This document shows positions 4,764 through 64,000 of a DNA stretch of 64,000 bases, one piece after another; the first letter of the stretch is position 1, and each line of letters begins with the position of its first letter. This stretch comes from Lentisphaerota bacterium. Lineage in GTDB: Bacteria; Verrucomicrobiota; Kiritimatiellia; PWTM01. The position numbers were made by a program, and so were the translations under genes. Under the pieces are notes generated by a model. The model was not told the DNA's origin. It saw only the letters and a list, made by a program, of their open reading frames with translations, and searched no databases. The stretch lies in the NCBI GenBank assembly GCA_016873715.1, contig VGWF01000001.1:394-64393 (forward strand), given 5' to 3'.

Positions 4764-7700
4764 ACTCCGCCATTCCCGCCTTCGCCGCGTGCGCAGCGGC
4801 CGTCCTTGCGGCAGCCGCGCCGCCGTCCCGTCCGCATCCGATCGTCGCGTGGCTGCCGCCGGAGTCGCTGCCGTCCGAGCCGGCGACGCGGGCGCTGACA
4901 CCCGACGAAGCTGCGGCGGCCTTGGAGCGCGACTGGCTGTTCCAGTGCGACGGGCGTCCTTCGCGGGGCGCCGTGGAGGCGGAGATCCGGCGCGCACGGC
5001 GCATCGCCACGGCCCTGGCCGACGGCCCCGCGCGGTCCGTTGCATCGTCCGCCCTGGAACGGCTGGCGGCGATCGAGGCCTCCCTGAAGGATCCGGCCGT
5101 CCCGCGGTGCGTACCCCCGCGGCCCGACGGCATCGCCGGACGGTGGTCGTTCGAGGGCACGGACGACGAGGTGTCGGCGTTCAGGCCCCTGGGATCCTGG
5201 GTCTTCGTCGACGGCGTGTTCGCAAACGGAGTGGCGCTCGGCGGCGGCGCCTACGCCGACGCCGGGGCGCAGGCCCATGGCGTCTTCGCAGGGTCCTACT
5301 CGGTGACCGCGTGGATCCGGACCTCGTCGGACGAGGCCGATGTGATCGGGACCGGGGTGGGGCGGGACCACGTCCTGCTGATGGCCTTCCGCGGCGTGGT
5401 GCGGGGCCATCACTGGACGGCCGGCGGTGCGAACGTGATCGACGGAAAGACCCCGTTGGCCGACGGCGCATGGCACCACATCGCGCAGGTCGTCGACGGC
5501 ACGACGATCCGGCTCTACGTCGACGGGAAGCCGGACGGCGAGCAGCCCTTCAAGGGCCGCGCCGCCGTGCCGCCCGCGCCGCTGCTGATCGGCGCGCGGT
5601 CCATGGATCCCGCGTCGCTCCGGTCGAGATTCCAGGGCGAGATGGACGAGATCCTGCTGCTCGGCCGGGCGCTGGGCGCCGACGAGATCGCCGGCCCCCA
5701 CGCCGCCGGGCGCGCCGCGCTGGAGGCATCGGCCGGGGCCTCGCGCGAGCCCTACCTGGCGGTGCGGCGCATCAAGCGCGACCTCATGGTCCGCGACCCC
5801 GCGGTCGACTTCAGCCGCGTCGTCTTCATCGACCAGCCGTATCCGCAGGGCGCGGAATGGGCGCACGAGGCGCGGCACCGCAACGGCACGATGGCCGTGC
5901 CCGGCGGGCGGCTGCTGACGCTCGAAGGCCTGCACCCGGGCGGCACGGTGCGCAAGCTCGCGCCGGCGGACGGCCCCGCCGCGTTCTGGCGGCCGGACGT
6001 GTCGTTCGACGGCCGCCGCGTGCTCTTCTGCATGAAGCCGGCGGCGGAGAAGGCCTTCCACCTGTACGAAATCGGCGCGGACGGAAAGGGGGTCCGCCGG
6101 ATCACGGACGGCGACTACGACGATCTCGACCCGATCTACCTTCCGGACGGGCGCCTCCTGTTCTCGACCTCGCGCGCGAACACCTACGTCCGCTGCATGC
6201 CCTACACGTACGCGTACGTGCTGGCGCGCTGCGACGCGGACGGCAGGAACCTCTACGTCGTCAGCCCCGGCAACGAGCCCGACTGGCTGCCGTCGCTGTT
6301 GAACGACGGACGCGTGATCTTCACGCGGTGGGAGTACACCGACAAGGCGCTGTGGCGGATCCAGAGCCTCTGGACGATGAACCCCGACGGATCCAGCCTC
6401 TCGGCCTTCTGGGGCAACCAGAGCGTCTGGCCCGACATGCTCGTCGAGCCGCGCGCGATCCCCGGGAGCCGCCGCGTGATGTTCAGCGGCTGCGGCCACC
6501 ACGACTGGTTCGGCGGTCCGATCGGCATCGTCGACCCCGCCCAGGGCTTCAACTTCCCCGACGGGCTGACGAAGGTCACGGCCGACGTGCCGTGGGCCGA
6601 GTGCGGGCCTCCGCCGGTCGACCCGGTCGAGAGCGCCGCCTACGAACCCGCCGGCCGGTTCGGCGCGTACAAGACGCCGTATCCGCTCTCCGACCGTCTC
6701 TTCCTCGTCTCGGCGCGCACCGGCGGGCTGAACACGCCGCGGGACAAGCAGCCGGGGAGCTTCAAGCTCTACCTGATGGACGTCGACGGCAACCGCGAGC
6801 TGATCCACGAGGGCGCGTTCAACATCCTCCACGCGATGCCGCTGCGCCCGAGGCCGGCCCCGCCGGTGATCGCCGACCGCGTCGAATGGCCCGGGACCGG
6901 GCCGGACCGCAAGCCCGCCGCGCCGGGCGTGCTCTTCTCGGGGGATGTCATCCAGGGACCGACGCGGATTCCGCGCGGCGAGGCGAAGTGGCTGCGCGTG
7001 GTCGCGATGGACGCGAAGACCTACTCGTCGTGGATCCGCGAGGAGATGCCGCACCAGCACTCGGGTCCGGCGGTTTCGCTGCTGCAGGCCGACGGCGTGA
7101 AGCGGATCGTCAGCGAGGTTCCGGTGGAGGCCGACGGTTCGGTGAACTTCGAGGCGCCCCCGGGCGTGGCGCTGCATTTCCAGCTTCTCGACGGCGGGCG
7201 TCGCGCGATCCAGACGATGCGCTCCTTCGTCGGCGTCATGCCCGGCGAGCGGCGCGGCTGCGTCGGCTGCCACGAGATGCACAGCGTCGCCCAGGTGAAC
7301 GCGCGCGGCGCGGCCCTGGAGCGCGCCCCGTCCGCGATGACGCCGCCGCCGTGGGGCGCGGACACGACGCTGGGCTACGAGCGGTCGATCCACCCGATCC
7401 TGGAGAGGCACTGCGGCGCCTGCCACCAGGGGGACGGCAAGGGGCGGAAGGCCTTCGACGTCACGCTGCGGCCGGGGCTCGGCATCTTCAAGGAGCCCTA
7501 CGTCACGCTCGTCGGCGGGTCGCTGTACCACGGTCCGAAGTCGCTCGAACCGCCCGCGACGATCGCTGGATGCCTGCCGGTCGAAACGTGGCCCACCGCC
7601 GGCGCGCCGGAGGGCGTGCGGACGTTTCCGCCGATGACGTGGATGTCGCGCACGAGCCGCCTCGTGAACCACTACGCCTCCGGGGCGCATCACGCCGAGG

Positions 7701-7930
7701 TGCGGATGCCGGAGGCCGAGCGCCGCGTGCTGGCCGCCTGGGTCGACCTCACCGCGCCCTACCGGGGCGACGAGGAGATCCGCGCGCTGCCCGATCCCGA
7801 CTTCCCCGGCATCGGGGACCTCCCCGTCCGCCCGCGCGTGCGCACCGCGCCGGTGATCGACCGCTTCAACCTGCCCCAGGACGGCGTGGCCAGGGCGATG
7901 TCCGCATCCGCCGGAAAGGCGACGCCATGA
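4760..7930 (+). CDS. Secreted multidomain protein, paralog 1. It has a signal peptide, a LamG/ConA-like domain, a PD40/TolB-like beta-propeller and two CxxCH motifs ('GCVGCHE', 'RHCGACHQGDGKGRKAFDVT', PSCyt1-like).
   Basis: ORF 4670..7930. The GTG at 4760 overlaps the IclR stop (GTGA), and a signal peptide follows it. Conserved blocks are shared with the genes at 7927 and 45528. Confidence 0.85.
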   Translation: MNSAIPAFAACAAAVLAAAAPPSRPHPIVAWLPPESLPSEPATRALTPDEAAAALERDWLFQCDGRPSRGAVEAEIRRARRIATALADGPARSVASSALERLAAIEASLKDPAVPRCVPPRPDGIAGRWSFEGTDDEVSAFRPLGSWVFVDGVFANGVALGGGAYADAGAQAHGVFAGSYSVTAWIRTSSDEADVIGTGVGRDHVLLMAFRGVVRGHHWTAGGANVIDGKTPLADGAWHHIAQVVDGTTIRLYVDGKPDGEQPFKGRAAVPPAPLLIGARSMDPASLRSRFQGEMDEILLLGRALGADEIAGPHAAGRAALEASAGASREPYLAVRRIKRDLMVRDPAVDFSRVVFIDQPYPQGAEWAHEARHRNGTMAVPGGRLLTLEGLHPGGTVRKLAPADGPAAFWRPDVSFDGRRVLFCMKPAAEKAFHLYEIGADGKGVRRITDGDYDDLDPIYLPDGRLLFSTSRANTYVRCMPYTYAYVLARCDADGRNLYVVSPGNEPDWLPSLLNDGRVIFTRWEYTDKALWRIQSLWTMNPDGSSLSAFWGNQSVWPDMLVEPRAIPGSRRVMFSGCGHHDWFGGPIGIVDPAQGFNFPDGLTKVTADVPWAECGPPPVDPVESAAYEPAGRFGAYKTPYPLSDRLFLVSARTGGLNTPRDKQPGSFKLYLMDVDGNRELIHEGAFNILHAMPLRPRPAPPVIADRVEWPGTGPDRKPAAPGVLFSGDVIQGPTRIPRGEAKWLRVVAMDAKTYSSWIREEMPHQHSGPAVSLLQADGVKRIVSEVPVEADGSVNFEAPPGVALHFQLLDGGRRAIQTMRSFVGVMPGERRGCVGCHEMHSVAQVNARGAALERAPSAMTPPPWGADTTLGYERSIHPILERHCGACHQGDGKGRKAFDVTLRPGLGIFKEPYVTLVGGSLYHGPKSLEPPATIAGCLPVETWPTAGAPEGVRTFPPMTWMSRTSRLVNHYASGAHHAEVRMPEAERRVLAAWVDLTAPYRGDEEIRALPDPDFPGIGDLPVRPRVRTAPVIDRFNLPQDGVARAMSASAGKATP

Positions 7931-10900
7931 GAATCGCCTCTTCCGGCCGACACGGAGGTCGGCCCTCCGGCCCGTCGGCATGCCGTTCGGTTTCGCGACT
8001 GGAGGGCCGGGCTCTGTCCCGGCCGTTCCGGTCCGGGGCGCTCGCCGCGTTTCTCAGCCTCGTCGCCGCGGTCGCACCCGCGGCGGAATCGGAAGCCACC
8101 GGTGTCGCGTCGCCGCTGCCCCCGCTGGCGGTTCACGTGAAGCGCGACACCCTCGCTGCGACCCTGCTCGCGAGCCGCGCCGCGCTGGCCGCATGGCGCG
8201 CGGAGCAGGCCGCCGTGCGGCCGGGGCTGGTGTGGGGCCCGTGGTCCGTCAGCGCGGCGGGCAAGCCCGACGCGCCCGCCCCCGCGGTCGATCCCGCGGC
8301 GAAGGACGCGGAGGGCGCGCCCCTCTGGCAGCCGCGGGCCGGATGGAAGGACGGCCAGTTCCTCCCGCTGGTTCCTGCCGGGCAGCCGAACGCGCCCGCG
8401 ACCGTGTGGCTGACGCGAACCGTCGTCGCCTCGCGACCCGCGACGGTGACCGTCGGCCTCGGCGGTGGCGACCGGATCGAGGTGCGGATCAACGGCACAG
8501 TCGCGCACACGCTCGACACCCGCGCCTGCTACGAGCGCTATGGCTGCAGTCTCGCGACGGACACGATCCACGCCGACCAGGTCATGGTGGGTTTGGCGCT
8601 CCCCGCGGGCACGAACCGGCTGACCCTCGGTGTGTCGCAGTCCGACATCGGGCGCCAGGCCCCGTTCCGTCTGTGGTTCTCCTCCGCGCCGAATCCCGTG
8701 CCGCACCTCTGGCAGCGCATCCGCCGCGACTTCCCGCCGTCGGGCCATGCGTTGCTGGAGGCCGTGCCGTACCCGTGGTTCGAAGCCGGGGGCTGGTTCG
8801 ACGCGGACGATTCGCGGCTCGAACGCGCGTTCGTCGCCGATGTCGCGGCCTCCAACGCGCCGCTCGCCGCGCTGCTCGGCCCGCCTCTCGCCGCCCTCGA
8901 GTCGGCGAAGGCCCCGGCCGGCGACCCCCGGTGGCTCGACCTTTGCGTCACCGCCGCGGAGCAGGCGCGGGCGGCGGACCGGCTCGGCCGGCTGGCGGCG
9001 GCGGTGGCGGAACTCGCGCGTTCGCACCCGGCGTATCCGGCGGATCGTCTGCTTGGCGAGATCGACGGGCTGCGCTCGGCGGTTCTTCGCGGCGAGCCGT
9101 CGCGCCCCGCGGTGGACGCCCTCGCGCGCCGCGCCCTGGTGGACGAGAGCCCGCTGCTGAAGGGGCGGAAGCTCCTCTTCTCCCGCCGGTACACGTACGA
9201 CTCGCGGCATTACTACGACGACTACTACGCGGGCCTTCGCGAATGGGGCGGGAACCTCTGCGAACTCGACCCCGCCACGGGCAAGGTCCGCGAGATCGTG
9301 CCGAAGCTCGCGGGCGGTATCTTCGACCGCTACGACCTCTCGCGGGACGGCCGGCGCGTCGTCTTCGGGTATCGCGCGCCGCGGCCCGAGGGCTTCCGCA
9401 TCTGGGAATGCCGCCTCGACGGCTCCGGCCTGCGGCAGCTCACGGCTCCGCCCGCCGACGAGCCGGAGCGCATCGCGCGGCACGCGGGCTACACGCGCGA
9501 GGCGATGGAGAAGGACCCGCGGCTCTACGGTCACTGGACCGACGACCTGCACCCGTGCTACCTGCCCGACGGCCGGATCGTCTTCGTCTCGAGCCGCTCC
9601 GAGCGCAGCGTCCTGTGCGGCGGGCACCCGCTGACCTGCACGACGCTCCACCGGATGGATGCCGACGGCCGCGACCTGCACGAGCTTTCGCAGGGCGCGC
9701 TGACCGAGTCGACGCCGACGCTGCTCGACGACGGCCGCATCCTCTACACGCGCTGGGAGTACGTCTACAAGGGCATTGCCGCCGTCCAGTCGCTCTGGGC
9801 GATGCGTCCCGACGGCACGGCCTCGGAGGAGATCTACGGCCACAACATCGACAACCCCGGCGTCTTCTTCGCCGGCCGCCAGATCCCCGGCGCGCCGGAC
9901 CGCGTCGTCGCCGTCGGCTGCGGCCACGAGCCGCTCGCCGTGGGTTCGATCCGCGTGATCGACCGCGCGAAGGACCGCCGCACGAAGGACGCGATGACGA
10001 GCCTCACGCCCGAGGTCGAGACGCGAAACCTCCGCGGGTTCTTCCAGTACCGCAACGGCCGGTGGAACGCGGAGGACGTGTACGGCCCGTTCTATACCGA
10101 CCCGTACCCGCTCTCGGAGCACTTCTTCCTCGTCTCGCACAACCCGTCCTCGCGGTACAACGACCGCGACGCCTACGGCATCTGGCTGATCGACACGTTC
10201 GGCAACCGCGTGCCCGTGTATGACGACCCGGAGATGTCCTGCTTCCAGCCGACGATCCTCGCCCCGCGCGCCGCGCCGCCCGCGCTGCCGCCGATGATCG
10301 CGGACGAGGCCGCGACCCACGGCGAGGCGACCGTGCTGCTGGTGGACCTCCACCGCGGCTTCACCAACGTCGCGCCGGGCACCGTGAAATACCTGCGCGT
10401 GATGGAGCAGATCCCGCGCTCGTGGGCGGCCTCGCAGGTGCAGCCGGGCGACGGCATCCCCGGCCAGACGACCGCCGTCTCGCTCAACACCCACATCTGG
10501 ATCGGCGTGCTGCTCGGCGTCGTCCCGGTCGAGGCGGACGGCTCGGCGTTCTTCCGCGTGCCGGCGCGGCGCAACCTCTACGTCACCGCGCTCGACGGCG
10601 ACTTCCTGGAAGTCCAGAAGATGCGGACCTTCGTCAACTTCCAGCCCGGCGAGACGCGCTCGTGCGTCGGCTGCCACGACCCGCGCGACGGCACCCCCGT
10701 CACGACGCGGCCGCTGGCGATGAACCGCGCGCCCTCGGCCATCGCCCCGCAGCCCGGCGACGCCGGTCCGCGTCCGATCCACTATCCGTCCGACGTCCAG
10801 CCGGTGTTCGACCGCCACTGCGTCGCCTGCCACGGCGGCGACAAGCCGAAGGGCGGCCTCGATCTGACCGGGGAGATGACGACGCACTTCAACCGCTCCT

Positions 10901-11832
10901 ACGAGACGCTCCTGAAGAAGGGCCTCGTGAACTTCATCCAGGAATGGACCGGGCCCGCGCCGGAGCAGGCCGGTCCGGGCCACGTGCCGAACGGAAGCAT
11001 GCTCTTCTCCGAGGCCGTCGCGCCGTACACGTTCGGTTCGCACCGCAGCCGCCTGATCGAGGTCCTGCGCAAGGGCCACCACGACGTGAAGCTCCCGCGC
11101 GAGGAGTTCATCCGCATCGCGACGTGGGTCGATGCCAACGTTCCGTACTACGGCTCCTACTTCGGCCGGAAGAACATCGCCGCGAAGGGGCGCCCGGGGT
11201 TCCGCCCGGCCCCGACGCTGGAGTCCGCGCGCGGGATCGAGCCGCCGCCCTACGTGCCGCCGGCCCTGCCGGCGAAACTTCTCGCGTCGTGGGGGGCGGA
11301 CGCGCTGCCCGCGGCGTTCGACGGCACGGCCGGGGTGGCCGGCGCCGCCCCCGGCGCGCACGAGGCGGTCTCGGTCGCGCTGTGGGTCCGGCCGGAGAGC
11401 CTCGGCAACCGGTGGAACCCGCTGCTCTTCACGGACGGTGGGGGCGCGTCGGCCTTCCATTTCAGCCTGCTCGAGGACGGCACGCCGAACGTCGCGGTCA
11501 ACTACGGCGGCAAGATGTGGATGCACAGCCGCGCCGAAACGGCGGTCGCGCCGGGCGCGTGGCGGCACGTCGCCGTCGCGTGCGATCCCCGCGCCGGCGG
11601 TTCGATCCGCTTCTTCGTCGACGGCCGCCCCGCCGGCCGCAAGCCGCTGGACCTCGGCGTGCCGGTCGACCTCGCCGCCTTCCGCCTCGGCGCCTGGAAC
11701 CAATGGGCGAAACAGCCCGCCAGCAACTTCCACGGCGTGATGGCCGGCGTGCGGCTGTACGCGGGCCTGCTGACCGACGACGAGGTCGCGGCGCTGGCCC
11801 GCACGGGACCGGATGCGGCGGTGCGACGGTAA
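7927..11832 (+). CDS. Secreted multidomain protein, paralog 2. It has an N-terminal beta-sandwich-like domain, a helical linker, a PD40 beta-propeller, two CxxCH motifs ('SCVGCHD', 'RHCVACHGGDKPKGGLDLT') and a C-terminal LamG/ConA-like domain.
   Basis: Second half of the 2347-aa fused ORF. ATG at 7927 overlaps the upstream stop (ATGA), indicating translational coupling. The motifs 'VPVEADGS', 'CVGCH', 'KPKGGLDLT' and 'W(V/I)DxN(V/A)xYYG' are shared with its paralogs. Confidence 0.85.
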   Translation: MRIASSGRHGGRPSGPSACRSVSRLEGRALSRPFRSGALAAFLSLVAAVAPAAESEATGVASPLPPLAVHVKRDTLAATLLASRAALAAWRAEQAAVRPGLVWGPWSVSAAGKPDAPAPAVDPAAKDAEGAPLWQPRAGWKDGQFLPLVPAGQPNAPATVWLTRTVVASRPATVTVGLGGGDRIEVRINGTVAHTLDTRACYERYGCSLATDTIHADQVMVGLALPAGTNRLTLGVSQSDIGRQAPFRLWFSSAPNPVPHLWQRIRRDFPPSGHALLEAVPYPWFEAGGWFDADDSRLERAFVADVAASNAPLAALLGPPLAALESAKAPAGDPRWLDLCVTAAEQARAADRLGRLAAAVAELARSHPAYPADRLLGEIDGLRSAVLRGEPSRPAVDALARRALVDESPLLKGRKLLFSRRYTYDSRHYYDDYYAGLREWGGNLCELDPATGKVREIVPKLAGGIFDRYDLSRDGRRVVFGYRAPRPEGFRIWECRLDGSGLRQLTAPPADEPERIARHAGYTREAMEKDPRLYGHWTDDLHPCYLPDGRIVFVSSRSERSVLCGGHPLTCTTLHRMDADGRDLHELSQGALTESTPTLLDDGRILYTRWEYVYKGIAAVQSLWAMRPDGTASEEIYGHNIDNPGVFFAGRQIPGAPDRVVAVGCGHEPLAVGSIRVIDRAKDRRTKDAMTSLTPEVETRNLRGFFQYRNGRWNAEDVYGPFYTDPYPLSEHFFLVSHNPSSRYNDRDAYGIWLIDTFGNRVPVYDDPEMSCFQPTILAPRAAPPALPPMIADEAATHGEATVLLVDLHRGFTNVAPGTVKYLRVMEQIPRSWAASQVQPGDGIPGQTTAVSLNTHIWIGVLLGVVPVEADGSAFFRVPARRNLYVTALDGDFLEVQKMRTFVNFQPGETRSCVGCHDPRDGTPVTTRPLAMNRAPSAIAPQPGDAGPRPIHYPSDVQPVFDRHCVACHGGDKPKGGLDLTGEMTTHFNRSYETLLKKGLVNFIQEWTGPAPEQAGPGHVPNGSMLFSEAVAPYTFGSHRSRLIEVLRKGHHDVKLPREEFIRIATWVDANVPYYGSYFGRKNIAAKGRPGFRPAPTLESARGIEPPPYVPPALPAKLLASWGADALPAAFDGTAGVAGAAPGAHEAVSVALWVRPESLGNRWNPLLFTDGGGASAFHFSLLEDGTPNVAVNYGGKMWMHSRAETAVAPGAWRHVAVACDPRAGGSIRFFVDGRPAGRKPLDLGVPVDLAAFRLGAWNQWAKQPASNFHGVMAGVRLYAGLLTDDEVAALARTGPDAAVRR

Positions 11833-12238
11833 GCCGGGCGGGTTCACCCGCGGGGCGTGTCATGCGGTCATGGAGTCGTGGGTTTGCCCGCGCGGCGAGG
11901 GAACCGGCGATCCGCACGACACGCTGTGCGGGCAACTGCAGGTGTGCCGACGCCAACGCAAGCCCGGCCCCTGCGATTCGCAACCCGCCTGCAACCTGGC
12001 TTTCCGCCGCGGCCCGTGGACCTCGCCACCGAGTCCCCCGGCACGAGGAGCTGCGAGCCATGCCCATTTCTGTGGCGCATCCGGCGCGCCTGTGGTGAAG
12101 TAGGCGGCACGATGAACCCGCGCGTTCTGTCCGCCACGCTCGCCGCCCGGTCGTCGGCGCTGCGCCGGTGGGGCGACCGCTTCGGCTTCGAGAGCCGAGA
12201 TGTCCGCCATCCGCGCCTGTCGCGATAAAGGAGAGGCC

Positions 12239-13447
12239 GTGAAGAGAACCGTCAGCCTGGGTCTTGCCGCTGTCCTGCTCGCACCGCCGGCCGCCCTGTG
12301 CGAGGCGCCGACGACGACGGAATCCCCGGGCGGCTTTGCGGTCGCTTCGAAGCTGGAGGAGTTCCTCGGCGAACCGGTCCTCGTGCCGATGCAGGAGCTC
12401 TGGAAGGGGCGCGGGGGGTGGGGCGGAATCGTGGCGGCGCGGGACGGGACGCTGGTGGTGTTCCGGTCGCCCGGCGGTGGCGAGTGCCGGCGCAGCCGCG
12501 ACGGCGGGAAGACCTGGGATGCCGACATCGTCATCGCGCCCGACGCGAAGGGCGGCCGCGCGCTGGTGGACGAGTCGAACGGCGACCTGCTCTATGCGAA
12601 TCCGCCGTCCGGCTGGCTCTACCGCAGCCGCGATTCCGGCGCCACGTGGACGTGCGAGACGAACGCGATCCTTCCCGACGGCTTCGGACTCGTTCCGACC
12701 CTCGAGGGCGTCTCCGCGATGCAGGCCGGCATCACGCTGGCGTTCGGACCGCGCAAAGGCCGGCTGATCATGCCCGCGCGCATCACGGGGCCGAAGGGTT
12801 CGAACGCCGTCGGGTGGCGGCCGTACCACTACAGCACCGCGCTCTACAGCGACGACGGCGGGAAGGTCTGGCAGACCAGCAAGCCCTTCCCCGTGATGGG
12901 CACCGGCGAGGCGACGCTGGCGGAACTCTCCGACGGCAGCATCCTCTACAACTCCCGCGAGCACATGAGCCGCGGCAACCGCTTCTTCGCGACGAGCCAC
13001 GACGGCGGCGACCTGTGGATCGACGCGCGTCGCAGCGCCGAGCTGCCCGACGGCGCGCGCGGCACGTCCTACGGCTGCATGGGCGGCATGGTCCGCCTGC
13101 CCGTCGCCGGGCGCGACATCCTGATCTACAGCAACCTCGACACCGACTCCGGCGAGATGCCGAGGCAGGTCGGGGCCTCGATCGTCAAGGGCCGGGAGAG
13201 GATCACCGTCTGGGCGAGCTTCGACGGCGGGCGCACGTGGCCGGTCAAGCGCCTGGTCTACGAAGGTCCCAGCGCCTACTCCAACCTCGGCGTCGGCCGC
13301 TCCGGCACGCCGTGCGCGGGCCGGATCTTCCTCGTCTTCGAGGGCAGCGCGGCGGGCTGCAGCGAGGCCGTCCACGTCGCCTCGTTCAACCTCGCCTGGC
13401 TGCTCGACGGCCGCGACATCGCCGGGTTCCTCGCGAAGCAACCCTGA
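12239..13447 (+). CDS. BNR/Asp-box sialidase (exo-alpha-sialidase, GH33-like) with a signal peptide.
   Basis: Five Asp-box motifs (SRDGGKTW, SRDSGATW, SDDGGKVW, SHDGGDLW, SFDGGRTW). An RBS 'aaaggagag' precedes the GTG at 12239. Confidence 0.8.
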   Translation: MKRTVSLGLAAVLLAPPAALCEAPTTTESPGGFAVASKLEEFLGEPVLVPMQELWKGRGGWGGIVAARDGTLVVFRSPGGGECRRSRDGGKTWDADIVIAPDAKGGRALVDESNGDLLYANPPSGWLYRSRDSGATWTCETNAILPDGFGLVPTLEGVSAMQAGITLAFGPRKGRLIMPARITGPKGSNAVGWRPYHYSTALYSDDGGKVWQTSKPFPVMGTGEATLAELSDGSILYNSREHMSRGNRFFATSHDGGDLWIDARRSAELPDGARGTSYGCMGGMVRLPVAGRDILIYSNLDTDSGEMPRQVGASIVKGRERITVWASFDGGRTWPVKRLVYEGPSAYSNLGVGRSGTPCAGRIFLVFEGSAAGCSEAVHVASFNLAWLLDGRDIAGFLAKQP

Positions 13448-13464
13448 CGGACGGTTCCTCTGCC

Positions 13465-14772
13465 ATGCCGTCGCCGCCCGTCCATCTCGCCGCCCTGCTT
13501 CTCGCGCCGCTGACCGTCGCGGCGGCGGGCGGCGGCTTCGAGGGCGGGATCGGCGTGGTGGACATCACGTCCACGGGGGCCGTCGTGCTGGCGGGCTCGC
13601 CGGTCCGGGTGGCGACGGCGGAGGTCGCGAGCCGTCTGCAGGTCCGCGCGCTGGTCCTCGCCGCGGGCGGGCGCAAGGTGGCGATCGTCGCGCTGGACAC
13701 GCTGAAGTACCCCGTCGAGCACGTGGAGCGGGCGCGCCGGCGGATCGAGGAGACGACGGGCATCCCGGCCGGCCACGTCGTCCTCTGCGCGTCGCACACG
13801 CACCGCGGCCCGCTGTGGAGCCACTACGGGGACCAGCTGGTGACGCCCATCGCCGAGGCGGTGGCGATCGCGACGCGCGATCTCGCGCCCTGCAGCCTCG
13901 GAGCGGCGAAGGGCAGGGCCGAGGGCGTCAGCGAGTGCCGGCGGGTGGTCAGGGAGGGCCACGCCTGGAACCGGTGGCAACTGGCCCCCGGGGAAGCCGA
14001 CACGTACCCGGCGGAGGGACCGGCCGATCCGGAATTCGACGTCCTCGCGGTGACCGGCGGCGACGGGAAGCTCAAGGCGATCGTGTACAACTTCGCCTGC
14101 CACGCCGCGAATACGCGGACTTCCGTGATCTCGGCGGACTACCCGGGCGACGTCGAGCGGCATGTCCGGAGCCGTCCGGGCTACGATGTCCCCGTGCTGT
14201 TCCTGGCCGGCGCGTGCGGCGACGTGAATCCGGTCTACAGCGCGGCGCAGGGGCTTCTCGGGGAGCGGCTCGGCGCGGCCGTCATCGACTGCCTTGGCCG
14301 GCTCGAACCCATCGCCGGGCCGTCGCTCTCGGTGGAAGGCCGGGAGCTGCGGATGCCGGGCCGGGAGCATCCGGAGTTCCGGGAGGCCGAGGTTGCCCGG
14401 AACTGGCCCGGGCAACTCGAGCACTACCGGAAGTCCTTCGACGACATGAAGCGGCGGGAGAAGCCGGCCTATCCGTTCGCCCTGACCGGCATCCGGATCG
14501 GCGACCGCTTGGCGATCGCGACCGTCCCCGGCGAGCTGTTCTGCGAGATCGGGATGGCCATCAAGACGCGGTCGCCGTTCCGGCACACGATGGTCGTCGA
14601 ACTTGCCAACGGCGCCCACGGTTACATCCCCACGGCGAAGGCGTTCGAGGGCGGAAGCTACGAGACATGGTTCGGCGAGCATTCCTGCCTCACGACGCGG
14701 GCCGGGGAGATCGTCGAGATGGAGTCGGTGGACATCCTGAACAACCTGAAACGAGCGGAGATGACCCCATGA
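13465..14772 (+). CDS. Neutral/alkaline (non-lysosomal) ceramidase-like hydrolase.
   Basis: 'GIGVVDITSTG' and 'CASHTHRGP' match the neutral-ceramidase N-terminal-domain motifs; there is a signal peptide and the stop overlaps the next start (ATGA). Confidence 0.7.
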   Translation: MPSPPVHLAALLLAPLTVAAAGGGFEGGIGVVDITSTGAVVLAGSPVRVATAEVASRLQVRALVLAAGGRKVAIVALDTLKYPVEHVERARRRIEETTGIPAGHVVLCASHTHRGPLWSHYGDQLVTPIAEAVAIATRDLAPCSLGAAKGRAEGVSECRRVVREGHAWNRWQLAPGEADTYPAEGPADPEFDVLAVTGGDGKLKAIVYNFACHAANTRTSVISADYPGDVERHVRSRPGYDVPVLFLAGACGDVNPVYSAAQGLLGERLGAAVIDCLGRLEPIAGPSLSVEGRELRMPGREHPEFREAEVARNWPGQLEHYRKSFDDMKRREKPAYPFALTGIRIGDRLAIATVPGELFCEIGMAIKTRSPFRHTMVVELANGAHGYIPTAKAFEGGSYETWFGEHSCLTTRAGEIVEMESVDILNNLKRAEMTP

Positions 14773-16526
14773 CACGCACCCGGACCGTGGCCGGCATCCT
14801 GTCGGTCCAGCTGTTCGCCTCCCCGGCCGTCCGCGGTGCCGACGAGGCGGCGTGGGTGCGGTTGAGGGATCCGCTGGACACCAGCGTCGTGAAGGTCGGC
14901 GAGACGATCTTCACGGACCGGCCGTACGCGTTCGAGTCGTATCCCAAGGAGATGGATGGACTGGCCTTCGTGCGCGGCGGCATCGAGTCGACATTCACGG
15001 TCGCGGTTGCGCGCGACGGCATCCTGCGGGCGCTGACGGCCGCGCCGGAGACGAAGGCGGCCCACGGGCAGGCGGCGTCGCTGCGGAGGCTGGGCTTCGA
15101 GGAGGTCGCCGAGGCCGGCCGGCACCAGTTGTTCGGCGCGTCGCCGGCGGACCGCGTCGCGCTCTTCCGCAAGACGGTGAAGGCCGGCGAGAGCTACACG
15201 TTCCATCGCTGGACCGTCGTTGCGGCGGGGCGGATCGAGGAGTCGCCGTTCAAGAAGATGGTGGCGCAGTACGCGCGCGACGAGGCGACCGGCCGGCATG
15301 TGCGGGAGAACCTGCTGTTCCTGCAGCCGGACTACGTGGTCTTCGTGCCGAAGCAGAAGCGGGAGATCGTCGGCGACCGCTACAACGATCACTTCCAGGT
15401 CTTCGACAAGCCGGACGGCACCCTCTTCGCCGCGTGGACGCAGGCGACGCGGGAGGGGGACGTCGACCAGCACGTCTGCTTCTCGCGCAGCCGGGACAAG
15501 GGGCGGACATGGACCGAGCCGGTGATCCTTGCCGGGTCGGCGAGTTACGTGAATCCGCAGCCGATCGCGAGCTGGCAGCAGCCGATGGTGTCGAAGTCCG
15601 GCCGCATCTACATGCTCTGGAACCAGCGCGTGTCGAACGACCCGCTTCACCACGGGATCATGATCGGGAAGTACTCGGACGACGACGGCGACACGTGGTC
15701 GCAGCCGCGCGTCGTGACGCTGCCGCGCGTGAACCGCGACCCGCCCGGCAAGCCGCCGAGCTGGTGCATCTGGCAGCGGCCGCTGAGGCTGGGGAAGGAC
15801 GGGAAGTACCTCGTCGGCCTCACGCGCCACGGCGTCGTCACGGGCGAGACCGCGACCGCCGCGGCGGCGGAGTCGGAGAAGGAGAACAAGGACGGCCGGC
15901 TGCAGTCCAAGCTCGCCGGCTCGACCGTCGAGTTCATCCAGTACGACAACATCGACGACGACCCGGCGATCGAGGACATCCGCGTCGTGCTGCTCGCCGC
16001 CAACGAGAAGGAGATGGCGGTGATCGATCCGAAGTGGGGCCTGTGCTGCCAGGAGGCGGGCATCGTCAACCTGCCCGACGGCCGCCTCTTCGCGCTGATG
16101 CGCACCAGCGCCGGCTCGCCCTACTGGAGCCAGAGCCGCGACAAGGGCCTGAACTGGGATCCGCCGAAGGCTCTGAAGGATGCGGACGGAAAGCCGTACC
16201 TCCACCCGTGCGCGCCGTGTCCGATCTACGACCGCAAGGGCCCCGAGGCCTGCAGCGGCGAGTACTTCGCCTTCGTGTCGAACGAGGAGCGCAGCGAGAA
16301 GAACTCCTACAGCCCGCGCGGACCGCTCTTCCTGATCGCCGGCAGGTTCGACTCGCAGGGCGAGCAACCGATCCGCTTCGCCGCGCCCAAGCCCTACCCG
16401 TCGCGCCCCTCGGGCAACGCCTTCTACACGAGCCTCACGGTGGTCGACGGCCTGACCGTCCTCTGGATCCCCGACTGGAAGCACTTCCTGATCGGCAAGA
16501 TCATCGGCGACGAGTGGTTCGAATAG
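14769..16526 (+). CDS. BNR/Asp-box repeat protein (sialidase-like) with an N-terminal extra domain.
   Basis: Asp-boxes SRSRDKGRTW, SDDDGDTW and SQSRDKGLNW; a signal peptide is present. Confidence 0.75.
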   Translation: MTRTRTVAGILSVQLFASPAVRGADEAAWVRLRDPLDTSVVKVGETIFTDRPYAFESYPKEMDGLAFVRGGIESTFTVAVARDGILRALTAAPETKAAHGQAASLRRLGFEEVAEAGRHQLFGASPADRVALFRKTVKAGESYTFHRWTVVAAGRIEESPFKKMVAQYARDEATGRHVRENLLFLQPDYVVFVPKQKREIVGDRYNDHFQVFDKPDGTLFAAWTQATREGDVDQHVCFSRSRDKGRTWTEPVILAGSASYVNPQPIASWQQPMVSKSGRIYMLWNQRVSNDPLHHGIMIGKYSDDDGDTWSQPRVVTLPRVNRDPPGKPPSWCIWQRPLRLGKDGKYLVGLTRHGVVTGETATAAAAESEKENKDGRLQSKLAGSTVEFIQYDNIDDDPAIEDIRVVLLAANEKEMAVIDPKWGLCCQEAGIVNLPDGRLFALMRTSAGSPYWSQSRDKGLNWDPPKALKDADGKPYLHPCAPCPIYDRKGPEACSGEYFAFVSNEERSEKNSYSPRGPLFLIAGRFDSQGEQPIRFAAPKPYPSRPSGNAFYTSLTVVDGLTVLWIPDWKHFLIGKIIGDEWFE

Positions 16527-16666: not shown

Positions 16667-18358
16667 GTGCTCGACACCCATGCGGCCCCGAACGACTATG
16701 CCGCCGTGAATCAGGACAAGCCCCAACGGACGGCCGCTCGGGCCGCGGCGGAACCTGACCGGCCTCTGCCCGGCTGCGCCGGGACGGCGGCGTGCAGCGT
16801 TCTCGTCCGGTTCGCTTTTCTCGCTGCCCTGTGGCTCGCGCCGCTCGCGGCCCCGCCCGCCGAAGGCGCGCCGCGCGACCCGAACATCGTTGTGATCCTT
16901 GCCGATGACCTCGGCTACGGCGACGTGGGGTGCTACAACGACCGGGCCCGGGTCCCCACGCCCAACCTCGATCGCCTGGCGCGCGAGGGAATGCGGTTCA
17001 CCGATGCCCACAGTCCGGCGACCGTGTGCACGCCCTCGCGCTACAGCCTGCTGACCGGGCAGATGGCGTTCCGCGTTCCGCGCGGCGGCACGGTCTTCGA
17101 GGCCGTCGGCGGGCCGTCGCTGATCGCGCCCGGGCGGCTCACGCTGCCGGGCATGCTCCGGGCGCGCGGCTATGCCACGGCGTGCGTCGGCAAGTGGCAC
17201 GTCGGTCTGACGTTCTTCGACAAGGAGGGCCGGCCGGTCCGCGGCGGCGGCGTGGAGGCGGTCCGGCGCGTGGACTTCTCGCGCCGCATCGAAGGCGGAC
17301 CGGTGGACCACGGATTCGACACGTTCTTCGGCACGGCGTGCTGCCCCACGACGGACTGGCTCTACGCGCTCATCGAGGGCGACCGTGTGCCCGTGCCGCC
17401 CGCGGGCCCGCTCGACAGGACCCGGTTGCCCCGGCATCCCTACGCCGACGACTGCCGGGCCGGCCTGATCGCCACGAATTTCCCGATGGAGGAGATCGAC
17501 CTTCTCTTCCTCGCGAAGAGCCGCGAGTTCATCGAGTCGCACGTCCGCCGCGCGCCGGACAAGCCGTTCTTCCTCTACCACGCCGCGCAGGCGGTGCACT
17601 TGCCGTCGTTCCCGGCGGAACCGTTCAAGGGCAAGACCACGGCCGGTCCGCACGGGGATTTCATCTTCGAACTCGACCACGTCGTGGGGGAACTGCTGGC
17701 CACGCTCGATCGAGCGGGGGTGGCCGGCAACACGCTGGTCCTCTTCTCCAGCGACAACGGGCCCGAGACCGCCGCGGTGGTCCACATGCGCGCCGACCAC
17801 GGCCACGACGGCGCTCGGCCCTGGCGCGGCATGAAGCGCGACAACTGGGAGGGCGGCCATCGCGTCCCGTTCCTCGTCCGCTGGCCCGGCCGGGTGAAGG
17901 CCGGCGCGACCAGCGCGCAGCTCGCCAGCCTGACCGACGTGATGGCGACCGTCGCCGCGATCATCGGGGCCGACCTGCCGCGGGATGCGGGCGAGGACAG
18001 TTTCAACCTGCTGCCCGCACTGCTCGGCACGGACCGCGGCCCCATCCGTCCCTACCTGCTCCAGCAGGCCTTCGGCGGGGCGCAAACGCTCTCCATCCGC
18101 CGGGGAAACTGGAAGTACCTCGACCACGCCGGCTCCGGCGGCAACCGCTACGAAACCCATCCCGGACTCAAGAAGTTCATACTCCCCGACACCGCGCCCG
18201 GCGCGCCCGGCCAGCTCTACGATCTCGACGCCGACCCCGGCGAAACGAAGAACCTCTTCTTCGAGCAACCGCAGATCGCGAAGGAACTGAAGGCGCTGCT
18301 CGAGCAATCCAAGGCGTCCGGCCGCAGCCGCGAGGACCGGGCCAACCGCCAACCCTGA
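16667..18358 (+). CDS. Sulfatase (Cys-type; FGly motif CTPSRYSLLTGQ).
   Basis: 'ILADDLGYGD' metal-binding N-terminus plus C-x-P-x-R. The start is uncertain (GTG 16667 or GTG 16709). Confidence 0.85.
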   Translation: MLDTHAAPNDYAAVNQDKPQRTAARAAAEPDRPLPGCAGTAACSVLVRFAFLAALWLAPLAAPPAEGAPRDPNIVVILADDLGYGDVGCYNDRARVPTPNLDRLAREGMRFTDAHSPATVCTPSRYSLLTGQMAFRVPRGGTVFEAVGGPSLIAPGRLTLPGMLRARGYATACVGKWHVGLTFFDKEGRPVRGGGVEAVRRVDFSRRIEGGPVDHGFDTFFGTACCPTTDWLYALIEGDRVPVPPAGPLDRTRLPRHPYADDCRAGLIATNFPMEEIDLLFLAKSREFIESHVRRAPDKPFFLYHAAQAVHLPSFPAEPFKGKTTAGPHGDFIFELDHVVGELLATLDRAGVAGNTLVLFSSDNGPETAAVVHMRADHGHDGARPWRGMKRDNWEGGHRVPFLVRWPGRVKAGATSAQLASLTDVMATVAAIIGADLPRDAGEDSFNLLPALLGTDRGPIRPYLLQQAFGGAQTLSIRRGNWKYLDHAGSGGNRYETHPGLKKFILPDTAPGAPGQLYDLDADPGETKNLFFEQPQIAKELKALLEQSKASGRSREDRANRQP

Positions 18359-18370
18359 TCCGGGAGCCGA

Positions 18371-19555
18371 ATGATCCAACCCGCCGTTCATCCGCCTCCC
18401 AGGTCCACGGCCACGGTCTCCCGCCGGCACGTCCTTCTCGCCGCCGGAATCGCGGCCTTGGCCGTCCGCCCCGGGCCGGTTCGCGCCGCCGCGCCGGGAC
18501 GGTTCTTCTCCGTCGGCCGGAAGAACGGCCGCTGGTGGTTCGTCACGCCGGAGGGCAAGCCGTTCTTCTCGATCGCGCTGAACCATATCGATCCCGCGCC
18601 GCTGCGCACGACGGCGAACGGGGACCTGTGGGAGCGCAAGTACGGCAACTCGATGGAGCGCTGGCTCAGGGAGGCCGTGGCGCCCGACCTGCTCGCGTGG
18701 GGCTTCAACAGCGTCGGCTGGACGCAGGAGGTCGTCACGCGCGGCCTGACGAACCACCGTCACTCGCGCGCCTTCACCTTCGAGGAATACCAGTGGCTCG
18801 GGCTGCCGTACTGCCATCAGCTTCCGTTCGCCGACTTCCATCAGTGGGAGGTGGAGACGCGCCACCCCGATTTCGGCAGCGCCGAGTTCGCCGACTGGTG
18901 CGACTACGTCGCGCGCGAGCACTGCGCGCGGATGGCGGGCGATCCGAAGCTCATCGGCTACTTCTACATCGATTGCCCGACGTGGATTCACACGCGGCCC
19001 CACAACGAGTGGAAGGGGCCGCTCTTCGATCCCGGGAAGCTGAAGACCGACGCGGGCCGCCGGGAACTCACCGCGCTCGCGACGCAATGGTACCGGGTCA
19101 CGCACGACGCCATCCGCCGCTACGACAAGCACCACCTCATTCTCGGCGACCGCTACGAGGCCGGCCAGCCGATGGCCGAGGAGGTCGTGCGCGCCGCGCT
19201 GCCGTACGTCGACGTGCTGAGCTTCCAGCATTTCAAGCAGCCCGACGAGGTCGCCGCGAATCTCCGCCAATGGCACGACCTCACCGGCAAGCCCGTGCTG
19301 CTGGCCGATCAGTGCGTGTCCATCCGCGGGCCCGACGGCGTGCAGCGTCACGATGGCGCGGGCTACGCCGCCACCCTGGCCGCGCTGCGCGGTCTGCCCG
19401 GCTGCGTCGGCTACCACCTCTGCGGCGCGTATCTCCGCAACACCGCCCGCAACCGCGCCCTGCGCGCCGCCGACGAGACGCCCGACACCGCGGCGATCGA
19501 CGCCATCACCGCCGCCAACCGCGACGCGGCGGCGTGGATGAAGACGCAGGAATAG
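18371..19555 (+). CDS. Tat-secreted hypothetical protein, putative TIM-barrel glycoside hydrolase (GH5-like 'GRWWFVTPEGKPFFSIALNHI').
   Basis: 394-aa ORF with a Tat motif SRRHVLLAAG; the family assignment is tentative. Confidence 0.55.
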   Translation: MIQPAVHPPPRSTATVSRRHVLLAAGIAALAVRPGPVRAAAPGRFFSVGRKNGRWWFVTPEGKPFFSIALNHIDPAPLRTTANGDLWERKYGNSMERWLREAVAPDLLAWGFNSVGWTQEVVTRGLTNHRHSRAFTFEEYQWLGLPYCHQLPFADFHQWEVETRHPDFGSAEFADWCDYVAREHCARMAGDPKLIGYFYIDCPTWIHTRPHNEWKGPLFDPGKLKTDAGRRELTALATQWYRVTHDAIRRYDKHHLILGDRYEAGQPMAEEVVRAALPYVDVLSFQHFKQPDEVAANLRQWHDLTGKPVLLADQCVSIRGPDGVQRHDGAGYAATLAALRGLPGCVGYHLCGAYLRNTARNRALRAADETPDTAAIDAITAANRDAAAWMKTQE

Positions 19556-19594
19556 GCCGTGACGTCCGCCTCTCATGGCCTCAGGGTGAATCGA

Positions 19595-20995
19595 ATGAAA
19601 TCCTTCCCTTGCGCCTGCCTGCTGCTCCTGTTCTGCGCCGCTTCCGCGCCCGGTGCGCCCCGGCCGAACATCATTCTCATCCTCGCGGACGACATGGGTT
19701 GGCGTGATCCGGCCTGTTTCGGCGGCACGGCGGTGCCCACGCCGCACATGGACGCGTTGGCGGCGTCGGGATTGAAGATGACGCGCTTTTACTCCTCGAG
19801 CGCCGTATGCTCGCCCACCCGGGCGGCGATTCTCACCGGGCGCTATCCACTGCGTTTCGACATCCGCAAACACCTGACGGACGACGAGACGCACTTGCCG
19901 CGCTGCGTGACCACGCTCCCCGGTCTTCTGAAGCAGAAGGGGTATCAGACCGCCCATGTCGGCAAGTGGCACCTCGGCGGCCTGCACCTCGCCCATGCCA
20001 GGAATCGCAACGCCAGCATTCCCGGGCCGCGTGAGCACGGTTTCGATCATTACCTCTGCCAGAACGAGGAGCCGCCCCTGCGTCCCCGTCTCGGCAGGGA
20101 ACGCCGTCTCTACGCCGATGGCGGCACCTGCCTCCTGCGGGACGACGTGCCGGTGCCGGAGAGCGATCCCTACTTCAAGATGCACCTCACCGACATCATC
20201 GGCGCCGAGAGCGTACGGTTCGTCGAGAAGTCCCATGCGGACGGGAAGCCCTTCTTCCTCAATATCTGGCATCTCGTGCCGCACCTCCCGTACGAGCCCG
20301 GTAGCGAGCCGCATTGGAGCAACACCGCCGCGCCCGGCATCAGCGATGACCAGCACCGTTTCCGCTCCATGATGGCCCACATGGATGCGACCATCGGCGA
20401 TCTCGTGAAGAAGCTCGACGAACTCGGCATCCGCCGCCAGACGCTCATCGTCCTCGCCAGCGACAACGGCGGCGTCTATGAGGGCGACATCGGTCCGCTC
20501 AAGGGCGGCAAGACCGATCTGCATGAGGGCGGCATCCGGGTCTCCGCCATCGCGTCATGGCCCGGCCGGATTCCCGCAGGCGGCACCAGCACCCGGGCCG
20601 GCACCACCGCCGACCTTCTGCCGACTCTGTGTGCTGCCGCCGGAGCCGCCGTCCCGGCCGAGGCCAAGGTCGACGGCGTGAATCTGCTGGCGCACTGGCA
20701 AACCGGCACCGACATCGCCCGCCCAGACCCCTTGCTCTGGCAGATGGATCTCTACCCGAATCTCCAGCGCCACTACCCGAAGCCCGAGCCTTACGCCACC
20801 GAGGCGGTCATGGATGGCAGGTGGAAGCTCCTCAGCCGCGATGCGGAGCCGCTGGAGCTTTTCGACTTGGACAACGATCTCGCCGAGCAGACCAATCTGC
20901 TCGGCCAGCATCCCGACATCGCCAGCCGCCTCGCGAAGGCCGTCCGCGCCTTCCTCGACGAGCCGAGAGATCGCAGCGGACACGTGGCGAAGTGA
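19595..20995 (+). CDS. Sulfatase (Cys-type; CSPTRAAILTGR).
   Basis: Signal peptide MKSFPCACLLLLFCAASAPG; sulfatase motifs. Confidence 0.85.
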   Translation: MKSFPCACLLLLFCAASAPGAPRPNIILILADDMGWRDPACFGGTAVPTPHMDALAASGLKMTRFYSSSAVCSPTRAAILTGRYPLRFDIRKHLTDDETHLPRCVTTLPGLLKQKGYQTAHVGKWHLGGLHLAHARNRNASIPGPREHGFDHYLCQNEEPPLRPRLGRERRLYADGGTCLLRDDVPVPESDPYFKMHLTDIIGAESVRFVEKSHADGKPFFLNIWHLVPHLPYEPGSEPHWSNTAAPGISDDQHRFRSMMAHMDATIGDLVKKLDELGIRRQTLIVLASDNGGVYEGDIGPLKGGKTDLHEGGIRVSAIASWPGRIPAGGTSTRAGTTADLLPTLCAAAGAAVPAEAKVDGVNLLAHWQTGTDIARPDPLLWQMDLYPNLQRHYPKPEPYATEAVMDGRWKLLSRDAEPLELFDLDNDLAEQTNLLGQHPDIASRLAKAVRAFLDEPRDRSGHVAK

Positions 20996-21153
20996 ACACC
21001 CCGACCGCTTCCTGGTGAACATCACGTTCACCCTGGTCCTTAACCCCCTCGGTGCAGGGCTTCATGATGCGATGTCGAGAACCGGCAACGCCATGGGCTC
21101 GGGTGCATGAAACCGGTTGCGGTTGCGTTGCCCCGCGGCGATAACATCCCGGC

Positions 21154-23889: not shown

Positions 23890-23965
23890 CGCGCGGAGAA
23901 GAGGCGACGCGGGGGGCGCGGTGGGGTAGGATCGGCGTGTCCGGCTGACTCCCTGGAGGACCGCC

Positions 23966-62857: not shown

Positions 62858-62858
62858 G

Positions 62859-63991: not shown

Positions 63992-64000
63992 CGATGTCCG

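Follow-up and report, generated by a model that had tools for sequence, protein, structure and literature searches.

The 64,000-nucleotide stretch analysed here, hereafter the window, comes from a Lentisphaerota bacterium (GenBank assembly GCA_016873715.1, contig VGWF01000001.1, positions 394 to 64,393 of the forward strand) and carries at positions 12239-16526 three consecutive genes, named g1, g2 and g3, the outer two of which are predicted to encode sialidase-fold propeller proteins and the middle one a short member of the neutral-ceramidase superfamily. The interpretation that we favour, to which a probability of about one half (0.5) is given, is that they are transcribed together as one cassette and that the three exported enzymes act on glycoconjugates that are acidic, N-acylated and sulfated. 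In this cassette g1 and g3 would remove, by a retaining mechanism with a tyrosine nucleophile, a terminal acidic sugar of the 2-keto-3-deoxy type (a sialic acid, another nonulosonic or ulosonic acid, or a close analogue), with a specificity altered from that of known sialidases. The product of g2 would cleave an N-acyl (amide) group in extracellular sulfated glycoconjugates of the same class, its target being more probably a sugar or glycan amide than free ceramide. The original prediction for this region had proposed instead the degradation of gangliosides and sulfatides.

Organisation of the cassette

The window has a GC content of 71% and contains many spurious overlapping open reading frames (ORFs). 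A plot of GC by codon position displayed one clear plus-strand coding frame per segment, with a third-position GC content (GC3) of 0.9-1.0 and changes of frame at about 13450 and 14700. The ORFs of g1, g2 and g3 were accepted as real genes because each has hundreds of homologues with expectation values (E) near 0, and the antisense ORFs overlapping them were regarded as artefacts on account of the high GC content. The exact coordinates, the GC3 plot and the inspection of the start codons confirmed the overlapping three-gene operon as first described, including the ATGA shared by the last two genes (Table 1). Judged from the gene layout, this overlap and the 17-nt gap between g1 and g2 indicate a single transcript and translational coupling of the three genes. 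Consensus scans found neither a sigma-70 promoter nor an intrinsic terminator, a result that is uninformative for this phylum. Each of the three proteins begins with a hydrophobic, signal-like segment and has no further membrane segment, and from these N-terminal signals all three are predicted to be exported.

Table 1. Position of the cassette genes and of the neighbouring features in the window
Feature	Position	Strand	Description
Weakly alkaline-ceramidase/CREST-like membrane protein	614..1285	+	real ORF, GC3 0.91; seven hydrophobic segments
IclR regulator	3948..4763	+	assigned by Pfam
Two giant LamG / HZS_alpha / CxxCH-motif proteins	~4760..7930, ~7927..11832	+	assigned by Pfam
Intergenic region upstream of g1	11833..12238	+	406 nt; likely promoter/leader of the cassette
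g1	12239..13447	+	402 aa; GTG start, preceded by AAGGAG at 12230-12235 (start-codon inspection)
g2	13465..14772	+	435 aa; ATG start, 17 nt beyond the g1 stop
g3	14769..16526	+	585 aa; ATG start sharing ATGA with the g2 TGA; GGAG 11 nt upstream
Downstream run	16892..25849	+	sulfatase, 394-aa protein, sulfatase, BNR_2 protein (21154..23889), sulfatase (Pfam)

The sialidase-fold proteins g1 and g3

The product of g1 matched the Pfam family BNR_2 with 47.1 bits (cut-off 31.4) and the sialidase of Micromonospora viridifaciens (1EUR) with E 9e-17 as a single sequence and 2e-22 as a family profile, the hhalign probability being 99.7%. Five Asp boxes (S-x-D-x-G-x-T-W) were located at residues 86, 130, 204, 253 and 327, and the protein is predicted to be a secreted, divergent six-bladed propeller with the fold of glycoside hydrolase family 33 (GH33). 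In an alignment of 18 relatives the residues E224, R240, R319 and Y347 are invariant, and they align with E260, R276, R342 and Y370 of the M. viridifaciens enzyme, which we take to be its catalytic Glu260, Arg276, Arg342 and Tyr370, the numbering offset having been checked against the printed alignment. In this way g1 keeps four of the six catalytic positions of sialidases.

The two remaining positions belong to the first blade. The RIP arginine of sialidases clamps the carboxylate of the substrate. No (F/Y)RIP motif was found before the first Asp box of g1, a region that was aligned neither by HMMER nor by hhalign; where it would be expected, the g1 family has an invariant motif of its own, Q52..W55..R58-GGWGG, and the invariant R58 lies within this unaligned region 2-6 residues from the expected position of the RIP arginine. 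The sequence FRSP at residues 75-78 was considered as an equivalent of the motif and was discarded, since it follows the DGTLVVF strand and the first Asp box begins just 10 residues further on. The acid/base residue D92 of the M. viridifaciens sialidase aligns with g1 R76, which is Gln in most relatives, and the alignment revealed no conserved acidic residue in the first-blade loop FxSPGGGxC of g1, which is 10 residues shorter than that of the M. viridifaciens enzyme.

The product of g3 scored 63.1 bits against BNR_2, and its AlphaFold2 model (predicted local distance difference test, pLDDT, 82.7) consists of an N-terminal beta-sandwich (residues ~25-185) followed by a GH33-fold propeller. The best Foldseek matches were the Bacteroidetes-type sialidases 4FJ6, 6MRX, 8GN6 and 4BBW (E about 3e-14 to 4e-14), and the template modelling (TM) score to the propeller-only sialidase 1EUS was 0.72. 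All of the 50 PDB matches listed by Foldseek are sialidases or sialidase-derived, except Dfer_1899, whose function is unassigned. According to the model, g3 is a two-domain protein of sialidase fold. It has three Asp boxes. In the alignment with NanC and anhydrosialidase, E429 falls on their catalytic Glu and R445 on their second Arg; R517 and Y553 (GNxFYxS) are invariant and were matched to R342 and Y370 by motif position, without a scored alignment. The RIP arginine is absent from g3, the strand before the DG turn being an invariant YNDHFQV (residues 205-211) that contains no Arg. In a profile comparison with the M. viridifaciens sialidase only an Asp-box region was aligned, and the g1 and g3 family profiles matched each other weakly (hhalign probability 10%). 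Residues 200-250 of g3 gave weak matches, near noise (E 0.004-0.04), to the BT3686 rhamnosidase model and to L-rhamnose-alpha-1,4-glucuronate lyase.

From the conserved residues, g1 and g3 probably use a retaining mechanism of the Tyr/Glu type. Since neither displays the full GH33 catalytic signature, sialidase activity should not be assumed. The designation of both as BNR sialidases stands for the fold (47.1 and 63.1 bits against BNR_2) and not for the canonical catalytic set, as the RIP arginine is absent from g3 and absent or shifted in g1, which also has no Asp at the aligned acid/base position. To our knowledge no member of either the g1 or the g3 clade has been characterised.

A third BNR_2 protein of the window (21154..23889, plus strand, 911 aa) scored 108.9 bits and has four Asp boxes, again without the RIP motif. 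Its C-terminal ~540 aa form an extension that matched nothing in Pfam, and a 68%-identical copy of this extension is found next to a g2 homologue in L002, an unrelated locus.

The neutral-ceramidase-like protein g2

Taken alone, g2 scored 14.9 bits against Pfam Ceramidase_alk (PF04734), below the cut-off of 32.1, and its sole sequence match in the PDB was the Pseudomonas neutral ceramidase 2ZWS (PaCD), with E 8.5e-5. A family profile built from 30 short-form sequences, down to 27% identity, found 2ZWS at E 1e-31 and human ASAH2 (4WGK) at 3e-25, the alignment with 2ZWS spanning the N-terminal part and the C-terminal catalytic segment; PF04734 was matched by 27 of the 30 relatives. The structural model of g2 was of low confidence owing to a shallow alignment (pLDDT 58.8, predicted TM score 0.68) and was used for fold assignment only. 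Its only significant Foldseek matches (E <= 0.001) were four neutral-ceramidase chains, with E from 4e-12 to 5e-11.

The residues H111, H113, R160, H213, Y387 and Y399 are invariant in the 30 sequences and E357 is conserved in at least 90% of them. They fall in segments aligned to the motifs HTHSGP, VHS, PAEF, SYVTT and YEG of 2ZWS. By the residue numbering of the Pseudomonas enzyme, every zinc ligand and every catalytic residue of g2 appears intact in the alignment, and g2 is probably an active zinc amidohydrolase of the neutral-ceramidase superfamily. The neutral-ceramidase-like nature first attributed to it was borne out at the level of the superfamily by the profile match and the intact residues, though the sequence by itself remained below threshold. 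The C-terminal beta-sandwich domain of ceramidases is missing from g2, which ends at residue 435, about 35 residues past the last catalytic Tyr.

An exhaustive profile search at E <= 1e-3 assigned 16,238 representative clusters to this short-form family, the best 150 of which are nearly all 420-470 aa long. Many members align from residue 2-5 and have no leader, which suggests that many are not exported. Within the clade of g2 itself, the sequences from Verrucomicrobiota, Planctomycetota and Lentisphaerae share 66-86% identity. A literature search on PF04734, and on ceramidase in these bacteria or in polysaccharide-utilisation contexts, yielded nothing relevant, and we know of no characterised member of the short-form family.

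Some information on function is contained in the proteins to which g2-type domains are joined. The fusion partners were an S1 sulfatase, giants with LamG, DUF7133 and cytochrome c domains, FG-GAP repeats, a GNAT acetyltransferase and a methyltransferase; no lipid-related partner was among them. The sulfatase fusion (P0361, locus L147, 6001..8742) comprises an S1 sulfatase domain at residues 44-485 and a g2-type ceramidase_alk domain at 495-912, connected by a linker rich in Pro, Ser and Thr that contains no internal signal peptide, and by these features it is probably a true natural fusion. Its gene is followed by a second ceramidase_alk-like gene and is flanked by genes for a GH29 fucosidase and for GH43 and GH88-like proteins. 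A further g2 homologue shows translational coupling to two genes, one polysaccharide-deacetylase-like and the other encoding a beta-helix protein.

Gene neighbourhood in related genomes

The surroundings of g2 were compared in 59 loci from Verrucomicrobiota, Planctomycetota, Lentisphaerae and one Bacteroidales genome bin, and those of g1 homologues in 80 loci from metagenomes, of which 44 were at least 8 kb long. The recurrent neighbours of g2 were sulfatases (18-20 of the 59 loci, ~30%), beta-lactamase-like genes (8), DUF1501 genes (6) and giant LamG proteins. One g2 homologue (locus L045) belongs to a cultured bacterium, Chthoniobacter flavus Ellin428. Elsewhere, homologues of g1 and of g3 stand singly in unrelated contexts.

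The closest counterpart of the cassette occurs in the locus L001, which is related to the window with 86-89% amino acid and ~90% DNA identity. The operon of L001 consists of six genes, encoding in this order a GH123 beta-N-acetylgalactosaminidase (358.8 bits), g1, g2, a 738-aa protein, a 665-aa protein and g3, those from g2 to g3 being joined by 4-nt overlaps. The 738-aa protein is a borderline GH42 match (21.8 bits, cut-off 21) and the 665-aa protein scored 20.1 bits against GH65-C, below the cut-off of 22; searches to assign these two, for example as a glucosylceramidase, gave a PDB match at E 0.025 for one of them and none for the other, and no NCBIfam match for either.

Comparison of the two loci (12053..12215 and 14703..14825 of the window with 4613..6752 and 9239..13559 of L001) revealed that the window lacks the GH123 gene just upstream of g1 as well as the 738-aa and 665-aa genes that separate g2 from g3 in L001, and that it retains the non-coding segment upstream. 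The stretch 12053-12140 shares 92% identity with the sequence immediately preceding the GH123 gene of L001, so the same upstream region appears to drive the longer operon there. The second giant gene (~7927..11832; 8137..11832 in this comparison) is replaced in L001 by an 801-aa gene, in addition to the GH123 gene. Whole genes seem to have been swapped at the junctions formed by 4-nt overlaps. The cassette of the window is a trimmed version of the six-gene operon of L001 and is lineage-specific, not a conserved module.

All three protein families are widespread in metagenome-assembled genomes of Verrucomicrobiota, Planctomycetota, Lentisphaerae and Kiritimatiellia, where they are routinely annotated as 'exo-alpha-sialidase' and 'neutral ceramidase N-terminal domain protein'. 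The suggestion that the region encodes an uncommon capability had therefore to be abandoned: the gene content is not uncommon, and it is the arrangement that is lineage-specific.

The membrane protein at 614..1285

A membrane hydrolase of the CREST/alkaline-ceramidase type had been counted by the original prediction among the genes acting together with the cassette. Its ORF is real, with seven hydrophobic segments, and it matched Pfam Ceramidase (PF05875) with E 5e-5; no match was found in NCBIfam, nor any sequence match in the PDB. The motifs EPWATGSN at residue 27 and HFLWH at residue 200 were identified, and YH..SH....D in helices 2-3 was read directly; these presumably correspond to the metal ligands of ACER3, a correspondence that we assumed without alignment. 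Of the Pfam assignments implied for the region, BNR_2 lay above its cut-off, and PF04734 and PF05875 lay below theirs as single-sequence scores (14.9 against 32.1 and 23.2 against 32.5 bits, respectively). The gene is located 11 kb upstream of g1, from which it is separated by two minus-strand genes, the IclR gene and two giant genes, and no homologue was found within 10 kb of the 59 g2 loci or near the 80 g1 loci. Belonging to another transcription unit, scoring below the Pfam threshold and being unlinked in 139 loci, it was not retained as a part of the cassette. We know of no characterised bacterial member of the CREST/alkaline-ceramidase superfamily.

The glycan-degradation island

The cassette sits within a sulfatase-rich glycan-degradation island of more than 50 kb. 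The 'many sulfatases' noted earlier amount, by Pfam, to ten genes in the window, and the run downstream of g3 (Table 1) is the start of this ten-gene series. The other genes of the island, assigned by Pfam and NCBIfam, are GH32-like/LamG, rhamnosidase-like, carbohydrate-binding module plus beta-helix, esterase and beta-lactamase-like. Pfam annotation of the 64 kb disclosed no gene for a sialate lyase, a sialic-acid transporter, a glucosylceramidase or sphingoid-base metabolism.

Several features of the sulfatase run may be recorded. Two conserved-looking genes on the plus strand between sulfatases, at 18371..19555 (394 aa) and 32732..33997 (421 aa), have GC3 above 0.9 and no match in Pfam or NCBIfam. 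The gene at 34077..36917 (plus strand) encodes a 946-aa protein with two full sulfatase domains in tandem, which Pfam recognised as two stretches (323 bits). In the middle of the run, on the opposite strand (41334..42914), lies a gene for a radical S-adenosylmethionine protein with a DUF4070 domain; neither a formylglycine-generating enzyme nor a sulfatase maturase of the SPASM type was seen in the window.

Upstream of the cassette the IclR gene and the first two giant genes (4760..11832) appear to be translationally coupled, with 4-nt start/stop overlaps in the gene calls on the identical contig L064. A third giant protein with LamG, HZS_alpha and CxxCH motifs is encoded at 45528..48425. In all three giants, which are secreted, LamG occurs together with the 'hydrazine synthase alpha middle domain' and with CxxCH motifs like those of planctomycete-type cytochrome c; it is to giants similar to these, with LamG, DUF7133 and cytochrome c domains, that ceramidase_alk-like domains are joined elsewhere. 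At the right edge of the window (61958..64000, minus strand) are found genes for a sigma factor of the extracytoplasmic-function type, an anti-sigma factor (zf-HC2) and a protein of 299 aa without a match; besides IclR, these genes may provide the island with a second regulator.

At 50566..51579 (plus strand) two ORFs with FG-GAP/VCBS repeats are in the same frame and are split by an in-frame TGA at 50869-50871 (...LDAG*CVGSYPQ...). A perfect 9-bp hairpin, GUAUCCACA-GGU-UGUGGAUAC, lies 11 nt downstream of this TGA; its fold z-score is only -0.88 and it has no Rfam match. The TGA could be a selenocysteine codon with an element resembling a bacterial selenocysteine insertion sequence (a U-C motif), or mark a pseudogene, or be a sequencing error.

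Interpretation

A number of observations weigh against the assignment of g1-g3 to a common pathway for acidic, N-acylated, sulfated glycoconjugates. Both g1 and g3 accompany a g2 homologue in only one of the 59 loci (L001) and g2 occurs at none of the 80 loci with a g1 homologue; since synteny is not conserved, co-transcription may not mean a shared substrate, and with these counts conserved synteny was dropped as support for a joint function. The proximity of sulfatases was likewise rejected as proof of the role of g2, as it is seen at ~30% of the loci, by estimate about what chance would give in such sulfatase-rich genomes, and the sulfatase fusion is a single case. The substrates named for g1, g2 and g3 are putative, the first-blade active site was mapped by sequence alignment only, and the model of g2 is of low confidence (pLDDT 58.8). 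The loss of the RIP arginine and of the Asp could even mean that the propellers have left carboxylated sugars altogether; as a counterweight, R58 of g1 might stand in for the RIP arginine. It is tempting to speculate further that the g2 clade is an extracellular N-deacylase working together with sulfatases on sulfated glycoconjugates, a new class of activity in the superfamily, placed in the cassette between sialidase-fold enzymes in which the missing RIP arginine marks a new specificity. This more specific proposal is tentative and rather doubtful; in its variants, sulfated amino sugars or nonulosonic acids would lose N-acetyl or other N-acyl groups, or sulfated glycolipids would be converted to lyso-forms.

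The three genes could also be accidental neighbours in a very plastic island, co-expressed and yet active on different substrates with no joint mechanism. The restriction of the synteny to one close relative, the isolated g1 and g3 homologues in unrelated contexts and the insertion or deletion of whole genes at gene boundaries between the window and L001 are what such an origin would produce; it is nevertheless held to be unlikely, in view of the ATGA overlap and the 17-nt spacing, which point to one transcript and translational coupling, and of the 4-nt overlaps from g2 to g3 in L001, where the added glycosidase matches (GH123 strong, the 738-aa protein borderline) suggest a coherent glycan-processing unit. 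A different doubt concerns the propellers themselves, as g1 and/or g3 may not hydrolyse ulosonic acids at all and may have been retooled for a neutral or sulfated sugar, in the manner of the GH93 arabinanases and of the rhamnose-acting propellers of GH145 and polysaccharide lyase family 42 (PL42), or have become non-catalytic binders. The replacement of the carboxylate-clamping arginine by YNDHFQV in g3, its absence or shift in g1, the Arg or Gln of the g1 family at the position of the acid/base Asp, and the rhamnosidase-like gene of the island are in agreement with this, as are the matches of g3 residues 200-250 to rhamnose enzymes, although the latter are near noise. The Glu and the second Arg are, however, aligned in both proteins, the Tyr and the third Arg are aligned in g1 and matched by motif in g3, and the top structural matches are all sialidases, so that retooling of this kind is considered quite unlikely.

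The glycosphingolipid pathway of the original prediction, in which sialidases would desialylate gangliosides, sulfatases desulfate sulfatides, and g2 with the membrane protein split the ceramide, is judged the most improbable of the explanations considered. Its appeal lies in the facts that the only solved homologues of g2 are ceramidases and that g2 keeps all of their catalytic residues, that four of the six sialidase positions persist in g1, that the membrane protein has CREST-like motifs, and that in L001 a GH123 gene before g1 and a weak GH42-type protein after g2 give the order of enzymes needed for a GM2-type headgroup. The cooperation of GH33 and GH123 enzymes on a GM2-type epitope, described in PMC12856340, is its best point. 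Against it stand the loss of the RIP arginine from g3 and its absence or shift in g1, the lack of conserved linkage between g1 and g2, the unlinked, sub-threshold membrane gene, and the absence from the window of glucosylceramidase, sialate lyase and sphingosine-handling genes. In g2 itself there is no C-terminal domain, and the counterpart of PaCD residues 286-394 is ~45 residues shorter; a dedicated ceramidase role is moreover unlikely for a family of more than 16,000 clusters with leaderless members and non-lipid fusions. The GH32-like, rhamnosidase-like and beta-helix genes of the island point to microbial or plant/algal polymers. The short form of g2, the loss of RIP, the lack of synteny and the absence of catabolic genes for sialic acid or sphingoid bases from the window thus left the claim of ganglioside and sulfatide degradation unsustained; the milder alternative offered with it, that of mucin-type glycoconjugates, comes nearer to the evidence.

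Significance

If the ganglioside assignment were true, it would imply a diet of animal glycolipids for free-living bacteria of this group. The case calls for caution, as the annotations 'ceramidase' and 'sialidase' in environmental metagenomes should not be taken at face value: two abundant clades of sialidase fold, apparently without a defining arginine, are routinely annotated as 'exo-alpha-sialidase', and a short-form amidase clade, unusually conserved in these bacteria, occurs in glycan-degrading operons and, once, fused to a sulfatase. The g2-type amidase and the RIP-less propeller clades are tractable enzymes for biochemistry.

Comparison with known systems

With the GH33 sialidases of known structure (1EUR/1EUS), g1 shares the propeller, the Asp boxes, the Tyr nucleophile, its Glu partner, two of the three arginines and secretion, and g3 shares its two-domain architecture with the Bacteroidetes-type GH33 enzymes (BTSA 4BBW, P. 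gingivalis 8GN6, T. forsythia NanH 7QXO), its identity to characterised sialidases being 12-20% in the Foldseek alignments. Unlike GH33, neither g1 nor g3 has the (F/Y)RIP motif, and g1 is also devoid of the conserved acid/base Asp.

The neutral ceramidases (PaCD 2ZWS/2ZXC, ASAH2 4WGK) resemble g2 in the fold of the catalytic domain and in secretion, at an identity of ~15-17%. The HxHxGP motif (H111, H113), H213, E357 and Y387 as zinc ligands and the catalytic R160 and Y399 are shared. In contrast with the solved chains of 646-688 aa, g2 has 435 aa and no C-terminal domain, and its segment matching PaCD residues 286-394, ~45 residues shorter, is unaligned; the genomic and fusion partners of g2 are glycan-processing modules, with no lipid enzymes among them. 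The membrane protein at 614..1285 appears to have in common with the CREST/alkaline ceramidases (PF05875) the seven segments, an N-terminal motif resembling E-x-W-x-T-x-SN, His and Asp in the middle helices and a C-terminal HxxxH, and differs from them in scoring below the Pfam cut-off and in having no match to a solved structure; it has no linkage to the cassette.

GH33 and GH123 activities are reported to cooperate in Bifidobacterium bifidum on the Sda/GM2-type epitope GalNAc-beta-1,4-(Neu5Ac-alpha-2,3)-Gal, where SiaBb3 is a bifunctional GH33/GH123 sialidase/beta-N-acetylgalactosaminidase (PMC12856340). The window departs from SiaBb3 in that it contains no GH123 gene, its GH33-like partner is non-canonical and its host is an environmental bacterium of the Planctomycetes-Verrucomicrobia-Chlamydiae group, not a gut mucin specialist, whereas L001 carries the GH123 gene and the GH33-fold gene as adjacent genes behind one upstream region.

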